DNA of 35,716 nt from a virus (Duplodnaviria > Caudoviricetes): positions 1 through 35,716 of the IMG/VR virus record IMGVR_UViG_3300016476_000345; one strand, 5' to 3'. This document shows positions 4,211-35,663 of this stretch, in pieces. A program made the position numbers and the translations under genes. How positions within the stretch are numbered: position 1 is the first letter of the stretch; each line of letters starts with the position of its first letter. The notes under the pieces were generated by a model, which was not told where the DNA came from, ran no database searches, and saw only the letters and a list, made by a program, of their open reading frames with translations.

Positions 4211-4296
4211 AGCAGCGCCTCCTCATATTCAACGGGCGCAGGCGGCTCGTTCGGTTGAATGGGTCTTACGGGGAAGGGCCAGGTTGTCAGTTTCAT
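4207..4296 (-). CDS. 29-aa Pro-rich peptide (not in ORF track)
   Basis: MKLTTWPFPVRPIQPNEPPAPVEYEEALL; ATG overlaps the upstream TGA and its TGA overlaps the Rap1a GTG. Confidence 0.6.
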   Translation of the reverse strand: MKLTTWPFPVRPIQPNEPPAPVEYEEALL

Positions 4297-4967: not shown

Positions 4968-5213
4968 TTACTTGGTGGCCGCGATCAGCTCCGTCTGCAA
5001 CTCTTTGATCTGGGATCGAAGAGCCTCAATCTCGCGGTTCCAGTGAGCGCGAGCGGTGCGCTCGCCAGCGACCCATCCGGCCATCACGCCGCGAGTGGCG
5101 GCCTTCTTGATGATCTGCTCGACGTCATCGGAGGTGAGCAGCCCGATACTATTGGCGGCGGGCTTCATGTCGGCCACCACCTTGGAGATCTCGGCTTGAA
5201 GCTTGTCGTTCAT
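4968..5213 (-). CDS. Hypothetical protein with C-terminal coiled coil
   Basis: 81 aa, TGATG coupling with the upstream gene. Confidence 0.7.
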   Translation of the reverse strand: MNDKLQAEISKVVADMKPAANSIGLLTSDDVEQIIKKAATRGVMAGWVAGERTARAHWNREIEALRSQIKELQTELIAATK

Positions 5214-5392
5214 CAGATCACCCCGAAAAGGATGCAGGTAAGAACCACCACCAGGCCGATCACGCCGATGGCGACAATGACCTTGTCTTCGGTGTCCATG
5301 TCCGGATAGGGCTCGTGGATCTGGCCGCGATGGCCGGGCCCGAATGCTTCTTCCATGGTGCGGGGGTAGCGTTTGGTGGTTTGCATTTGCAT
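5213..5392 (-). CDS. First gene of leftward operon, small membrane protein (MQMQTTKRYPRTMEEAFG)
   Basis: AAGGAG directly upstream; C-terminal TM helix; the ATG at 5386 is an alternative start. Confidence 0.7.
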   Translation of the reverse strand: MQMQTTKRYPRTMEEAFGPGHRGQIHEPYPDMDTEDKVIVAIGVIGLVVVLTCILFGVI

Positions 5393-5415
5393 CTCCTTGC
5401 GTTGTTGACGATTGA

Positions 5416-5443
5416 ATCCTACAGTCATTGACGATCTTGTCAA
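5416..5443 (-). promoter_or_regulatory. Sigma70-like leftward promoter
   Basis: TTGACA (5443-5438), 16-nt spacer, TAGGAT (5421-5416). Confidence 0.65.
5428..5443. promoter_or_regulatory. Putative operator TTGAC-GATCTT-GTCAA
   Basis: Inverted repeat overlapping the leftward -35; same TGAC-N6-GTCA spacing at 5587-5602. Confidence 0.55.
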
Positions 5444-5482
5444 CTACCCTACAACTTAGTCGGGTATTGTCTCAATAGAATC

Positions 5483-5580
5483 AGCCCCGAGGGCGGTTGT
5501 CAGTTACCCGCCCTCCGGCGCGGCGTCTCCCCGCGACCGTTTCGGCTTGGGGGTGGGGCTGGCGCCTCACCCCCTTTTTT
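5483..5580 (+). ncRNA. Candidate two-hairpin small RNA with intrinsic terminator
   Basis: TAGAAT at 5476-5481; hairpin GAGGGCGG/CCGCCCTC with loop TTGTCAGTTAC; hairpin CGGCGCGG/CCGCG-A-CCG with loop CGTCTCC; terminator stem plus T6; no ORF. Confidence 0.5.
5549..5580 (+). terminator. Rho-independent terminator
   Basis: GGGGGTGGGGC-TGGC-GCCTCACCCCC followed by TTTTTT. Confidence 0.75.
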
Positions 5581-5586
5581 GCCGCG

Positions 5587-5616
5587 TTGACCTTTTCGTC
5601 ATTTCGCGCCTAGAAT
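5587..5616 (+). promoter_or_regulatory. Rightward promoter with overlapping operator; probably leaderless transcript
   Basis: TTGACC, 18-nt spacer, TAGAAT, then ATG 7 nt later with no SD; TTGAC-CTTTTC-GTCAT overlaps the -35. Confidence 0.6.
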
Positions 5617-5623
5617 TCTACGC

Positions 5624-5869
5624 ATGACGACTTACGCACAGCAAGCAATCGCAAGCATTAGGGAGAAGGCTCAGTCCGCAGGCTTTCGTCTGTCTGACGT
5701 CTGCCGCGTGGCCGAGATTGACCAGGCTCAGGTGAGCCGCTGGTCTAACGGGGCCACGGAGCCGCTATACGGGTCCGTGCGGCGCTTGGAAGAGGCAGTT
5801 GATGCGCTCATATCCGCCAGGATGAAGGCGCTCTCTGAGGCGATGGACGAGGCGGTGGGTAAGGCGTGA
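5624..5869 (+). CDS. XRE/Cro-like helix-turn-helix regulator
   Basis: LSDVCRVAEIDQAQVSRWSNGATEP HTH pattern; first gene of the divergent unit. Confidence 0.8.
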   Translation: MTTYAQQAIASIREKAQSAGFRLSDVCRVAEIDQAQVSRWSNGATEPLYGSVRRLEEAVDALISARMKALSEAMDEAVGKA

Positions 5870-6534
5870 GGGTCGAGCAGATCGGCGACGCCACGCTGTA
5901 CCTTGGCGATTGCATGGAGATCCTGCCGACGCTGGAGCGCGTTGACGCAGTGATTACTGATCCGCCGTATGGGATCAATGCTGCGCGCACAAGAAATAGC
6001 GCAAAAGATGGCTGGGTAGATTACGGATGTGATGGCTGGGACAAAGAACGCCCGAGACGGGAAATATTTGATTTGATGCGGAATTGCTCTGACCTGCAGG
6101 TCATTTGGGGTGGAAACTATTTCACAGACTACTTGCCACCTTCGCAGCAATGGTTCTCATGGGACAAAGGACAAGACGGTTTTTCTCTTGCTGATTTTGA
6201 GCTGGCATGGTCTAGCCAAGACAAAGCCTGCAGGCGAATCAACTATCCTCGCGCGCTTGCTTTAAAAGATGGAAAGCAGCATCCAACGCAAAAACCATTG
6301 GCTGTAATGCGATGGTGCATTGAACAAGTTGGAAAGCCTAAGATCATTCTCGACCCCTTTATGGGCAGCGGCACTACCGGCGTCGCGGCTATCCAGATGG
6401 GCCGCAAGTTCATCGGTATTGAGCGCGAGCCCAAGTACTTCGACATTGCCTGCAAGCGCATCGAGCAGGCCGCCGCTCAGGGCTCGCTGCTACCGCCAGA
6501 GCCTAGAAAGCCTGAGCAGGAGCCGCTGCTGTGA
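5866..6534 (+). CDS. DNA methyltransferase, N6/N4 beta class
   Basis: LYLGDC, DPPY, HPTQKP, DPFMGSGTTG, GIERE motifs. Confidence 0.92.
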   Translation: MRVEQIGDATLYLGDCMEILPTLERVDAVITDPPYGINAARTRNSAKDGWVDYGCDGWDKERPRREIFDLMRNCSDLQVIWGGNYFTDYLPPSQQWFSWDKGQDGFSLADFELAWSSQDKACRRINYPRALALKDGKQHPTQKPLAVMRWCIEQVGKPKIILDPFMGSGTTGVAAIQMGRKFIGIEREPKYFDIACKRIEQAAAQGSLLPPEPRKPEQEPLL

Positions 6535-31769: not shown

Positions 31770-33845
31770 CTAAAAGTTCTCATTTTTAGGATGCTCATCC
31801 TCCTCGATCCAAGCCCAATCGCCTTCAATCCTGACATTGGCGGGACGGCTGGACTCGCTCCTTGCGCGCCGCCATGCTGCTCGGAATGCTTCAATGCCGT
31901 CCTCGTCGGTGCCCATCTTTTGAGCGAAATGCTCCTTCCAGTCGTCCATCCTCACGCATTTCCTGATGCCGACTGACACCTTCCAATGTGTTCCTTTAGC
32001 GTTAATTGCTTGCCTCAGTGATTCGATTGCGACTGTTTGCCGCCTGCCCCTTCCTGAGCGATTTAGATTTACTCTCCTTGACTCATCCATCCTATCTTTG
32101 ACCGCTTCATCGGATGGGTTGACTGCCAAGGACTTGCGCGGCTCATCAAGGCTTAGCGGATTGTTGTCCTTCTCGTCGATCTCGATTTCCACCATCTCGA
32201 ACCCGTATCTCACGCCGTCCTCGCCGTCCTTTTGCTTGCTGACGGTGACCACGCCCCGCGGCTGGTCGTCGAATCTGAGGAGCTCGAGCTCGGTGTCTAC
32301 GGCGCCGAGCAGTGAGGAGTGACCGCGTAGCCCTTTGGCCTGGTCCTTGCCGCTGTGGTGGATGACGAGGAGTGCCGACTCGAAGACCTGCTGCAGGTGC
32401 CCGCAGCTGGTGATGAAGGCGCCCATGTCTTCACTGCTGTTCTCATTGCCCCCGCCGAAGGCCCTTGCCAGCGTATCGATGACGATAAGGTCAATCTTGA
32501 GCTGGCGGGTTTCGGCGAGTTCGGCGACCGCCAGCATGAGGCTGTTGATGTCCTCAGCGCTGGATCGGAGGTTGATCTGGTGACGCAGGATGTAGATGGG
32601 TATGCTCTCGTCTATGCCGTGGTGAATTCGGCAGGCTTTGATGCGCGCTCCGATGCCGCCATGGCCTTCGCCTGCGATGTAGACGACCGCCCCGTTGTCG
32701 CTTGGCGTCGCCTCCTGGCCCATCCACTGCGTGCCGCGGGCAATGGCGGCTGCCAGGTCCAGCGCAATGAAGGACTTGAAGCTGCCGGGCGGTCCGTACA
32801 GCGCCACGAAACCCTTCTTCGGGATAACCCTATTCACGAGCCATTCGACCGGCTCGTCCTTAATCTCGTCCCATGCCTCGAGGACGAGCTGCTTTCTTGG
32901 AGGCTGATTCTGCTGTTGCTGGTTTACGACGTTTGCTTGCTGCGCGTCCGCGGGTGGTGCCGGTGTGGTTTCCGGCGTTTCCACGGGCGGCTTGTCCTTA
33001 AGCCTGGCTGGCGCCTGGACCTCGTTTTCCGAGGTGATGGGCGCTTGCGCCTTCACCAGGTCGGCGAGGTCCTGGCGCGTTTTGCCTTGGCTGTAGATCC
33101 ACTCGTAAGCGTCGTCGCCCTGCTCCTCTCCCCCTAAGTCCACGACCCGGACTGACTTGGCGACCTGGAGGATCTTTGCCGCGGCTTTCTTGGCGTATTT
33201 CCAGCCTGGTGCGTCGTTGTCCGGCAGGATCACGACGTTGGCACCGGCAAAGTATTCCGTGATCGCGTCGGGCCAGGTTCCTGACCCGGCGTGGCTGGAA
33301 GTGGCGACACTGCCCAGCGAAATGATCGCGTCGGCCGCTTTCTCGCCTTCGGTGAGGTAGACGTAACGGCCTTTGCCGATGGCGTCCAGGAGCTCAGGCA
33401 GCTTATACGGAACGATGCGGGCGTCGCCCAGTGTTGCGTGCCTGCGCCCGGCTTCGTCGACCTTGATGAGGCGGTAGTCCTTGCCTTTGGCGTCGTGGGT
33501 CTTGTAGCGTTGCTTGATGAAGAGGGTCACGCCCTCCTCGTCTGTGTAGTGCCATTCCTGCTCAAGCTGGCGGGTGATGGGCTTGATGAGAGCGAGCGGC
33601 TCGACGTTGCGGGTCTCTAGCTCCGGCAGCAACCCGCGTTCGCGGATGACCTGGAAGACGGTCTGCTGGTCGCACCCTCCGTGGCAGTGGAAGAGCGGTT
33701 TCCCGTCCGGGCCTTCGCTGATGGATAGGGACGGGTTCTTGTCTCCGTTTCCTCTGCCGTGGCCTGGAACCGGGCAGCTTGCGAGCCATTGGCCGTTGAC
33801 CTTCTTGGCGTTGCCTAGCTGCTTGGCGATTTCTTCGGCTTGCAT
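31770..33845 (-). CDS. Primase-helicase (Zn finger, Toprim, AAA_25/RepA-like SF4 helicase)
   Basis: CPVPGH...HCHGGC, EGEKAAD, PDND, GPPGSFKS, IVIDT, IHHSGK, RGHSSL. Confidence 0.9.
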   Translation of the reverse strand: MQAEEIAKQLGNAKKVNGQWLASCPVPGHGRGNGDKNPSLSISEGPDGKPLFHCHGGCDQQTVFQVIRERGLLPELETRNVEPLALIKPITRQLEQEWHYTDEEGVTLFIKQRYKTHDAKGKDYRLIKVDEAGRRHATLGDARIVPYKLPELLDAIGKGRYVYLTEGEKAADAIISLGSVATSSHAGSGTWPDAITEYFAGANVVILPDNDAPGWKYAKKAAAKILQVAKSVRVVDLGGEEQGDDAYEWIYSQGKTRQDLADLVKAQAPITSENEVQAPARLKDKPPVETPETTPAPPADAQQANVVNQQQQNQPPRKQLVLEAWDEIKDEPVEWLVNRVIPKKGFVALYGPPGSFKSFIALDLAAAIARGTQWMGQEATPSDNGAVVYIAGEGHGGIGARIKACRIHHGIDESIPIYILRHQINLRSSAEDINSLMLAVAELAETRQLKIDLIVIDTLARAFGGGNENSSEDMGAFITSCGHLQQVFESALLVIHHSGKDQAKGLRGHSSLLGAVDTELELLRFDDQPRGVVTVSKQKDGEDGVRYGFEMVEIEIDEKDNNPLSLDEPRKSLAVNPSDEAVKDRMDESRRVNLNRSGRGRRQTVAIESLRQAINAKGTHWKVSVGIRKCVRMDDWKEHFAQKMGTDEDGIEAFRAAWRRARSESSRPANVRIEGDWAWIEEDEHPKNENF

Positions 33846-33912: not shown

Positions 33913-34497
33913 TTAGAACATCTCTTCTTCGTCAGCCGCCGCCGCAGGCGCCGCTGCCACAGCCCTAACGGGCGCAGGCGCTGCTGCAGGCGCAGGTGCC
34001 GCATACTCCTCGGCCTCTTGGGGCGCGTCCATACCCGCAGGACGGTCGATCCACTGCACGATGGCGAATTGCGGGATACGGGTGGTGCCCTTGCCGATCT
34101 TCTCCATCTTGGAGCCCTTGTATTCGACCACAGGCAGCTTGCCCGCGTTGGCCTCGCGTTCCGCGGCGCAAGCCGTGTAGAGTTGCTCGAGTCCCATGTT
34201 GGGGCCCACGCCGTTGGAGGACCACGACGCAGTACCGATTTCCTTGTTGTAGAACGTCACCTCGAACCCGCGCTTATGGTCGGGGCTGGGCTGCGCGCCT
34301 TTCTTGCCGAGCTGTTGATCTGGTTGCCAGTCGCGGACACCGACGCCCAGATGCAGCCATCCGGTCTTGACGTTGTCGATGTCGAAGACGACTTTTTTCA
34401 GTTGCACTTCCTCGCCGTTGGAGTTGGTCCAGGCATTGGCCTGGGGAGAGAAGCGCAGGAAGTTGGCGTTGCCGCCGCCAGAAGAGAGGTTAAGCAT
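33913..34497 (-). CDS. Single-stranded DNA-binding-like protein
   Basis: Beta-rich core, Ala/Pro linker, acidic tail ending DEEEMF; between nuclease and primase. Confidence 0.6.
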   Translation of the reverse strand: MLNLSSGGGNANFLRFSPQANAWTNSNGEEVQLKKVVFDIDNVKTGWLHLGVGVRDWQPDQQLGKKGAQPSPDHKRGFEVTFYNKEIGTASWSSNGVGPNMGLEQLYTACAAEREANAGKLPVVEYKGSKMEKIGKGTTRIPQFAIVQWIDRPAGMDAPQEAEEYAAPAPAAAPAPVRAVAAAPAAAADEEEMF

Positions 34498-34556
34498 TTC
34501 GCGTTTCGCTTTCGTGAGTTAAGAGTGTTGTCAGTTATCCCCTTGCGGGGGTTGGA

Positions 34557-35663
34557 TTATTGACGCAGGCTTGCGTCTCTTGCAATGGTGACGCCTGAGC
34601 TTTCCTTAACGGTCAACTCTTCCAGCATCTCCTTTTGCTCTTTGCCCAGCAGCTTCTCTGCTGCTGCTGGCGTAATGAATTCGGTGATGTAGAGTTCTTC
34701 CGCATCAATACCGGCCTCGATCAATGCTTCTTTCGCTTTCTCTTCGTCCGCCCACTTGCGCGTGGCTCGCTTGGGCGCGAGCTGCCAGCCGGGCAGAGTG
34801 CCCCCGCCCTTCATGCGCTCGAGGGCGTGCTTTCTCAGCGTCTCGATGAACGACTCGACGATGGGCGCGCGATTGAGAAGGTCGCTCACCTGCTCGTCAG
34901 TGAGCGTGACCATCACGGCCTTGATGTCCTCTTTGGTCATCGTGGTCACATTGGGCTGGGCCTCGATCACCGCGAATGCCTCCTGCTGCGCCGGGCACGT
35001 GAGCTTGGCCGGGCAGTACTGGCAGGCTTTGTCGGAGGGCTGCGGCTTTTGCGCTGGGTCGATGGCTGCATTGATGGCCGGCTGCAGGACCGTCTTTTCC
35101 CACTTGCGCAGGTCCTTGATGGTCATGACGTGCTTACGCATCTCGCCGTGGCGGGGCTGGATGACGCGAAGCTCGACGTGCTTGACCCAGTCAATGCCCA
35201 GCGTCTCGAGCGCCGCCAGCGCATAGATCTTCATCTGGTCGTTGTCCTCATCGACGTAGCCCGAGCCCGTCTTGAGGTCGGCCACGATGATGGCGTCCTG
35301 GTTAAACCCGAGAACGTCGGCGGTGCCCTTGAGGACAACGTCCGTCGTGTCGCAGTACGTCACGTGCTGCTCGACACGAATGTTTTGATGGCCCACGAGC
35401 TGCTCGATCTTCTTGATCTCGTCGATGTGCTGCTGCGCCATCTCGCAGTGCCAGGTGCCCATGATGACGCCTTCGATCTCCTTGCCGACGCTGTCCAGCG
35501 GGTTGGTGTCGAAGAGGTAGCAGGACTCGGCGAGCGCGTGAATGGCGGTGCCCGCCATGGCTGCATCGCCGCTGGGCGTGGGCGGGATGTCCTTGGACAA
35601 GAGGGCGCTTGCCGGGCAGGCGATCCAGCGCGAGGCGGCAGAGGGGCGTAGTTTTAAGGTCAT
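34557..35663 (-). CDS. DUF2800 / Cas4-like PD-(D/E)XK nuclease
   Basis: PSAASRWIACP, GTAIH, GTAD...DLKTG, QMKIYA, CQYCPAKLTCP. Confidence 0.85.
   Translation of the reverse strand: MTLKLRPSAASRWIACPASALLSKDIPPTPSGDAAMAGTAIHALAESCYLFDTNPLDSVGKEIEGVIMGTWHCEMAQQHIDEIKKIEQLVGHQNIRVEQHVTYCDTTDVVLKGTADVLGFNQDAIIVADLKTGSGYVDEDNDQMKIYALAALETLGIDWVKHVELRVIQPRHGEMRKHVMTIKDLRKWEKTVLQPAINAAIDPAQKPQPSDKACQYCPAKLTCPAQQEAFAVIEAQPNVTTMTKEDIKAVMVTLTDEQVSDLLNRAPIVESFIETLRKHALERMKGGGTLPGWQLAPKRATRKWADEEKAKEALIEAGIDAEELYITEFITPAAAEKLLGKEQKEMLEELTVKESSGVTIARDASLRQ

Follow-up and report, generated by a model that had tools for sequence, protein, structure and literature searches.

A conserved RNA element between the divergent early promoters of freshwater phages, a predicted family of trans-acting small RNAs

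Introduction

The interval between the divergent early promoters of the phage analysed here raises the question of whether it encodes a free small RNA and, if so, which mRNAs that RNA would pair with. The window, by which we mean the whole 35,716-nt stretch of virus record IMGVR_UViG_3300016476_000345, is a complete, circularly permuted phage genome (58.6% GC; its start repeats at 35519) with terminase, portal, capsid and tail genes, a DUF2800 exonuclease, a putative SSB and a primase-helicase. Its closest DNA match is a freshwater metagenome. As the preliminary description of this DNA had stated, there is no recognisable integrase or CI-type repressor: scanning 49 window proteins gave no such family match, and antirepressor families were likewise absent from these 49 proteins. 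Phage targets are known for few trans-acting phage sRNAs, and most of those described belong to phages of enterobacteria, Pseudomonas and Vibrio (PMC12197685, in part).

Gene arrangement at the locus

The genes and promoters to which the analysis refers are as follows.

5416..5443, minus strand: leftward early promoter PL (-35 at 5443-5438, -10 at 5421-5416; 10/12 consensus matches)
5386-5213, minus strand: first leftward gene
5587..5616, plus strand: rightward promoter PR of the HTH gene, with its -35 in a second operator-like repeat, 5587-5602 (by eye)
5624..5869, plus strand: 81-aa XRE/Cro-like HTH gene (profile matches below Pfam cut-offs)
4296-4207, minus strand: 29-aa open reading frame (orf29), coupled to a Rap1a-like gene
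34497-33913, minus strand: putative SSB gene, named from context (no family match in profile scans)
33845-31770, minus strand: primase-helicase gene

No gene was called on either strand over 5444-5623, which agrees with the earlier reading of a non-coding segment between divergent promoters and leaves the segment without the overlap with an opposite-strand target that marks a cis-antisense RNA. The -35 of PL lies within an inverted repeat (5428-5443, read from the sequence by eye) that may be an HTH operator. The HTH AUG follows the PR -10 by 7 nt, a spacing that was 6-7 nt in 257 loci, and because of this short distance the HTH mRNA probably has a leaderless start.

The leftward early operon also contains a PAPS-reductase-family gene (145-927) and a Rap1a-family gene (Pfam PF18602, 3872-4210). 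A DNA methyltransferase gene at 5866-6534 is a clean insertion: in runs X1, X2 and X3, the close relatives have 5865 directly followed by 6531. The exonuclease-SSB-primase module is leftward in clade 1 (window 34497-35663 and 31770-33845) and rightward, 3' of the HTH gene, in clades 2-4 (L033-L080), where HTH, exonuclease, SSB and primase share one rightward operon; this strand difference reads as an inversion or relocation of the replication module.

The RNA element and its relatives

The predicted RNA unit can be divided into the parts listed here.

5456..5468, plus strand: conserved element at the place of a -35 box, seen by eye in most relatives
5476..5481, plus strand: -10 hexamer of the sRNA promoter, in the sequence and kept at the same spacing in relatives
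about 5489..5580, plus strand: predicted small RNA of ~92 nt, its start placed by spacing
5489..5515, plus strand: hairpin 1, with a variable U-rich loop 1 (5497-5507) as the predicted specificity seed
5516..5539, plus strand: hairpin 2, with an anti-SD loop 2 at about 5523-5530
5540..5548, plus strand: single-stranded linker, differing from the six-base motif of nearly all relatives
5549..5580, plus strand: intrinsic terminator (11-bp stem and U-tract)

The -10, the two GC-rich hairpins and the terminator reported earlier are all present at 5476-5580, and the segment folds with a z-score of -3.4 (1 of 200 shuffles was equally good). The RNA, which had been drawn from 5476, probably starts near 5489, as a G 7-8 nt past the -10 opens the first stem in relatives. 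A canonical -35 is absent, as had been remarked, and the conserved element at about 5456-5468 in its place is a possible activator site or HTH half-site. At the level of sequence the unit has the promoter (-10), the terminator with U-tract and the exposed seed of an Hfq-type sRNA, and this anatomy makes Hfq dependence plausible.

Loci around HTH relatives were fetched in four partly redundant collections (the best 80 of 149, the best 80 of 97, the best 80 of 282, and 45 of 45). Among the matches listed, which include redundant records, the element was found 5' of the HTH gene in 216/230 loci, and in 259/275 once clade 4 was added. A -10-like hexamer at the same spacing was likewise present in 216 of the 230, and the 14 misses consisted of 10 contig ends, three variant -10 hexamers and one locus without the RNA body. 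The layout does not vary: the -10 is followed after 7-8 nt by a G with which the stem begins, and one or two hairpins, the six-base motif of the linker and the terminator come next, giving RNA lengths in clades 1-3 of 55-67 nt with one hairpin and 83-97 nt with two.

Among 18 distinct clade-1 sequences 98% of cells were paired and 8/23 pairs were compensatory, a count exceeding all 500 shuffles and all slid controls; in hairpin 1, four of the six inner stem pairs carried compensatory changes. A model built from clade-1 RNA sequences matched 12/12 other family loci given to it, from clades 1-4, at 18-100 bits. The structural conservation in relatives on which the proposal of a small RNA depended was therefore found, with compensatory stems across more than 200 loci among the matches listed, and the RNA element is real and conserved. 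It was absent from a more distant phage with a 43%-identical HTH protein. One HTH locus (L424:9850-9970) has the terminator but neither the sRNA -10 nor the hairpin, which may be a natural deletion or an assembly error.

Searches of Rfam at gathering and E-value thresholds gave nothing credible, the weak matches being to suhB and MmgR (E about 1). Positions 5200-5900 had no blastn match in 50,697 phage records, the exact window hairpin did not occur in IMG/VR, and 185,579 prokaryote genomes contained no relatives of the HTH protein.

Complementarity to phage gene starts

The predicted pairing sites in the window are these.

5625-5632, plus strand: predicted loop-1 target at the HTH start (bases +2 to +9, 8 bp) of a probably leaderless mRNA
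34527..34537, minus strand: predicted loop-1 target 40-30 nt 5' of the putative SSB gene, lineage-specific
4282..4292, minus strand: predicted loop-1 target in orf29 codons 2-5, lineage-specific
5389..5396, minus strand: SD of the first leftward gene, an 8-bp fit to loop 2 (rank 4/59 starts, 28/800 helices)
33833..33842, minus strand: predicted linker target in primase-helicase codons 2-5 (rank 10/800 helices, 3/58 starts)

The preliminary description had named three targets, the SSB leader and orf29 for loop 1 and the first leftward gene for loop 2. Both loop-1 11-mers, 4282-4292 and 34527-34537, match exactly and lie on the plus strand. The argument that they are rare by chance held for the 16-nt loop-1 region, to which at least two same-strand hits arose in 1 of 150 third-order Markov genomes, but the match was ordinary for the whole 105-nt segment, which drew at least six 11-mer hits on both strands in 18% of 150 simulated genomes; the match is thus unusual only once loop 1 is singled out. 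The SSB and orf29 sites were ranks 1 and 2 of 59 window start regions for loop 1. With accessibility included they were ranks 1 and 6 of 800 candidate helices in the window, and SSB, orf29 and primase were ranks 1, 2 and 3 of 58 window start regions, with modest predicted net pairing energies of -6 to -9 kcal/mol.

These sites are shared over a short range. Close relatives that are 96-97% identical keep the SSB site, which in three of four runs (two studies) is lengthened to 12 nt by a substitution at 34526, while the fourth run, about 90% identical, has indels within it; at the orf29 site one relative swaps a G-C pair for a G-U. Loci with the same loop gave no match of 9 nt or more to the two 11-mer targets. 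Both sites were absent from the 94%-complete relative G203, which has the same loop, and the loop 9-mer was confined to the RNA itself in the whole genomes G203 and G204. No true orf29 homologue was found in IMG/VR, where the one match was unrelated. We rejected the two 11-mers as conserved targets because relatives with the same loop lack them. The SSB leader as a universal target was set aside too (strong in only 6/42 pairs; rank 12/28 families in clade 1). This leader had been described as SD-less. It probably has an SD in the purine run 34513-34509, conserved in the clades seen and fuller in clade 4; the reading presumes the 16S tail that we take betaproteobacteria to have. Its position in the loop of a stem that covaries makes it unlikely that the 11-mer is a protein site at the DNA level.

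The 10/13 alignment of loop 2 with 5389-5401 is correct, and the site does cover the SD of the first leftward gene, the homologues of which begin at the second AUG. This gene was rejected as a specific target of loop 2 (median percentile 0.48; a swap-test p of 0.04 was driven by one lineage), and the case for 5389-5396 in that role is weak. For one loop type a 10-nt complementary first-gene leader occurred in 3/3 distinct leaders and in 0/20 others of the same two families. In L003, L005, L017, L019, L023 and L029 the SD of this gene (family 47) lies inside a short inverted repeat, which could hide it and so provide a possible cis translational control. With lineage-specific 11-mers and an average loop-2 fit, there is no support for the three named targets as a logic conserved in the family.

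The predicted target that does recur across clades is the start of the adjacent HTH mRNA, which the preliminary description had not named. Four loops match four HTH N-termini: MTT (8 bp, including the window), MKT (8 bp), MKV (8 bp) and MNY (7-9 bp). In a 5 x 8 matrix of loops by starts, the best start of every loop belonged to its own group. A swap test on 49 distinct loops, one of a set of 14 tests run on loops that are related by descent, gave p=0.005 for HTH, p=0.005 for the exonuclease and p=0.46 for the RuvC control. In a stricter rerun without clade 4 and with other scoring, HTH had p=0.06 and ranked 3/16 families, behind primase (only four distinct starts) and SSB. Only in 89/257 loci did the energy of the helix with the HTH start come to -9.4 kcal/mol or lower, and many loop types had no match. 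Loop/target co-variation between phages, the mark of c4-type RNAs, is by these values partial.

The second recurring candidate is confined to clade 4. There an 11-bp helix joins the loop to exonuclease codons 3-6, rank 1 of about 50 starts by helix energy in 5/5 genomes, and the site is present in 40/40 loci. Among 33 distinct clade-4 sequences the codons for Lys, Leu and Arg in this site never vary, for which the background would give about 0.002 (elsewhere 13/26 two-fold and 1/15 six-fold codons are invariant), with the reservation that gene starts are often constrained for other reasons. A loop change in two clade-4 loci converts a G-U into a G-C pair with this site. One clade-4 member with a changed loop has also lost the exonuclease site; it has kept its HTH start but no longer pairs with it. 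The loop complement occurs in the first eight codons of three to five genes in 6/6 clade-4 genomes, against about 0.15 expected, although one of these genes carries the complement in other clades too.

In the single-hairpin clades the SSB start was rank 1/22 families in a shuffle test, and one single-hairpin lineage would form a 13-bp bulged duplex with it. An accessibility ranking placed SSB, exonuclease or primase in the top four in only 4/12 genomes, replication genes not being at the top in most relatives, and an unbiased scan of gene families returned no conserved target for either loop.

Loop 2 and the linker motif

Loop 2 is an anti-SD seed with a heptamer common to the 5' end of all 24 RF02278 matches listed, and it is kept between clades 1 and 4. 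Among starts with a four-letter SD core in 21 genomes, the SD variant complementary to loop 2 was present in 44/77 early genes vs 12/98 late genes. The same bias exists in genomes whose RNA lacks that loop 2, and it is therefore no proof of targeting by loop 2. Throughout clades 1-3 one SD variant is preferred in early genes and avoided in late ones, whatever the sRNA loop, and a host sRNA or the ribosome may lie behind this preference.

Pairing of the linker with Met-Ala-Thr starts and primase leaders was unconvincing (6-8 bp, median percentile 0.08-0.10). The linker motif with its terminator also stands directly after stop codons in unrelated phages (L304, L340, L358, L360, L392, L343, L356 and L286). 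In L343 (L632:8713) it follows a probable capsid gene, and in the host locus L470, from a Burkholderiales MAG, it occurs once after a probable TonB-dependent receptor gene. Such units may be RNAs derived from 3' UTRs, or a site for a common protein or nuclease. The idea that the motif is a general host 3'-UTR signal was rejected (50 vs 64 for the scrambled control in 201 Burkholderiales genomes). Units of about 50-60 nt made of promoter, linker motif and terminator lie directly 5' of an unannotated gene in two other phages, L341 (L630) and L385 (L631), and they match the phage-RNA model R1 weakly, at 21.5 and 11.5 bits.

Transcription and host

One RNA library, a single run among the 22 listed, contained a 258-nt contig over 5411-5667 (depth 2.1) that spans both promoters and may be DNA; contigs show neither transcript ends nor strand, and a discrete transcript of the small RNA was not seen in this run. 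A clade-4 locus with RNA, HTH and RuvC was located on a 1,358-nt contig (L471) of a MAG labelled Ca. Methylopumilus, which points weakly to a betaproteobacterial host.

Discussion

The reading that we prefer, with moderate confidence, is that of a trans-acting base-pairing sRNA which would lower translation of the HTH regulator and of replication and early genes. Loop 1 would cover codons 1-4 of the leaderless HTH mRNA and so block 70S loading. 70S ribosomes load directly at the terminal AUG of leaderless mRNAs (PMC3177188, in part), and sRNA binding inside the first five codons can repress translation (PMC9486967, in part). Further loop-1 targets, differing between lineages, would be the SSB leader, a small early ORF or the start of the DUF2800 exonuclease. 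Loop 2 would serve as a general anti-SD seed that favours the ribosome sites of early genes, and the linker of the window phage would mask the start of primase. As PL and PR are probably both repressed by the HTH protein, presumably by binding of the repeats at both -35 boxes, the RNA would form the post-transcriptional arm of an early switch in phages without a recognisable integrase or CI. An RNA-based switch of early and replication genes was the original proposal; a conserved stand-alone RNA with loops complementary to early and replication starts agrees with it, but the targets then named are not family-wide.

A host-directed RNA would account for part of these data. Acting mainly on host mRNAs, it would mimic anti-SD sRNAs of the RF02278/S17 type or compete for Hfq and so redirect metabolism, and the phage-gene matches would be secondary, or by-products of an origin by inverted duplication. 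The heptamer at the head of all 24 RF02278 matches listed is present in loop 2 and kept in clades 1 and 4, the linker motif is nearly invariant with no strong phage target, many lineages are without a phage target at all, and host sRNAs of this kind act as repressors at the SDs of genes for transport and catabolism (PMC5688073 and PMC11722255, both in part). However, the phage RNA has only 7/10 bases of the host-family seed, these bases are often missing from single-hairpin clades, and loop 1 varies far beyond expectation for a host seed and tracks phage sequences. We consider a mainly host-directed RNA rather unlikely. The loops and linker could instead be protein sites, the RNA being a protein-binding decoy, a scaffold or a nuclease substrate and its complementarities due to chance; the similar U-rich pattern of loop 1 across clades would fit this, as would the finding that unrelated phages carry linker motif and terminator behind stop codons and within very small promoter units. 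Such a decoy would leave unexplained the invariant synonymous codons at the clade-4 exonuclease site and the diagonal of loops and HTH starts, and motif plus terminator are unenriched in the 201 Burkholderiales genomes (50 vs 64), so that we hold it to be improbable.

A reading without any functional free RNA takes the element as a terminator or insulator that shields the HTH promoter, with the hairpins as a DNA-level or cis site. The absent canonical -35 is compatible with it, and so are the terminator without RNA body in L424, the distant relative (HTH 43% identical) without the element, and the sole RNA-library contig, which spans both promoters and not the RNA alone. It seems very improbable to us, as a -10 at fixed spacing, compensatory stems that tolerate G-U pairs and conserved loops in more than 200 loci among the matches listed fit an RNA, and no other upstream rightward transcript needs termination. 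If the trans-acting sRNA is extended further, loop 1 and the first HTH codons might form a lock and key that diverges by lineage and defines RNA-based immunity groups in a large family of non-integrating freshwater phages. The RNA would then silence the repressor and replication genes of its own phage and of co-infecting kin and allow a carrier state without CI or integrase, an extension that we regard as speculative and unlikely.

If the trans-acting sRNA holds, a small RNA would silence a leaderless repressor mRNA via its first codons and would supply a control logic for phages without integrase and CI. The RNA family is common in lake viromes, and its natural loop/target variants are ready-made compensatory tests. 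No description of this RNA was found among the papers listed by literature searches, and the part of the supplements of Fremin et al. 2023 (PMC10690425) that was searched held no match, although the RNA may be an unnamed candidate within that set.

Among known systems, RF02278 (BdhR/ncS27 of Burkholderia, S17 of Bordetella) resembles the phage RNA as a short double hairpin with a terminator and a C/U-rich anti-SD seed (PMC5688073 and PMC11722255, both in part). The RF02278 model does not match the phage RNA, and the phage-RNA model matches just 2/24 RF02278 host loci, weakly. The host family has an invariant 10-base seed at its free 5' end, whereas the phage RNA shares seven of these bases, in loop 2, and its variable loop 1 is without a counterpart there.

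P22 sar is encoded opposite its target, with which it overlaps. Both P22 sar and lambda OOP are, like the window RNA, small RNAs in a phage control region, and they lower the translation or stability of a regulator mRNA (PMC12197685, in part). OOP is listed in the same source as acting in cis and overlapping an opposite-strand target, while no gene overlaps the window RNA, for which pairings of 8-13 bp are predicted. VpdS of VP882 and PreS of lambda are phage-encoded, Hfq-type trans sRNAs that affect phage replication (PMC12197685, in part); they act largely via host RNAs, and the evidence for the window RNA points to phage mRNAs.

In its action the window RNA would resemble the immunity RNAs P1/P7 c4 (RF01695) and P4 CI, which are also phage trans RNAs, of 77-90 nt, with loops that pair near the ribosome sites of regulator mRNAs; differences between c4 loops and targets underlie the heteroimmunity of P1 and P7 (PMC12197685, in part). 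The window RNA has no match to RF01695 and, in place of an antirepressor, its predicted targets are a leaderless Cro-like repressor and replication genes. c4 and CI RNA are encoded in the leader of their target operon, upstream of the antirepressor or kil gene, and are processed from it, and the CI RNA of P4 pairs through its loops near ribosome sites of the regulator. The window RNA differs in being a stand-alone unit between PL and PR with its own promoter and terminator. Judged from its sequence and predicted targets, it probably represents a new family of c4/CI-like trans-acting phage sRNAs for which Rfam has no model. The c4/CI principle is old, and the advance would lie in a new family and a new type of target.
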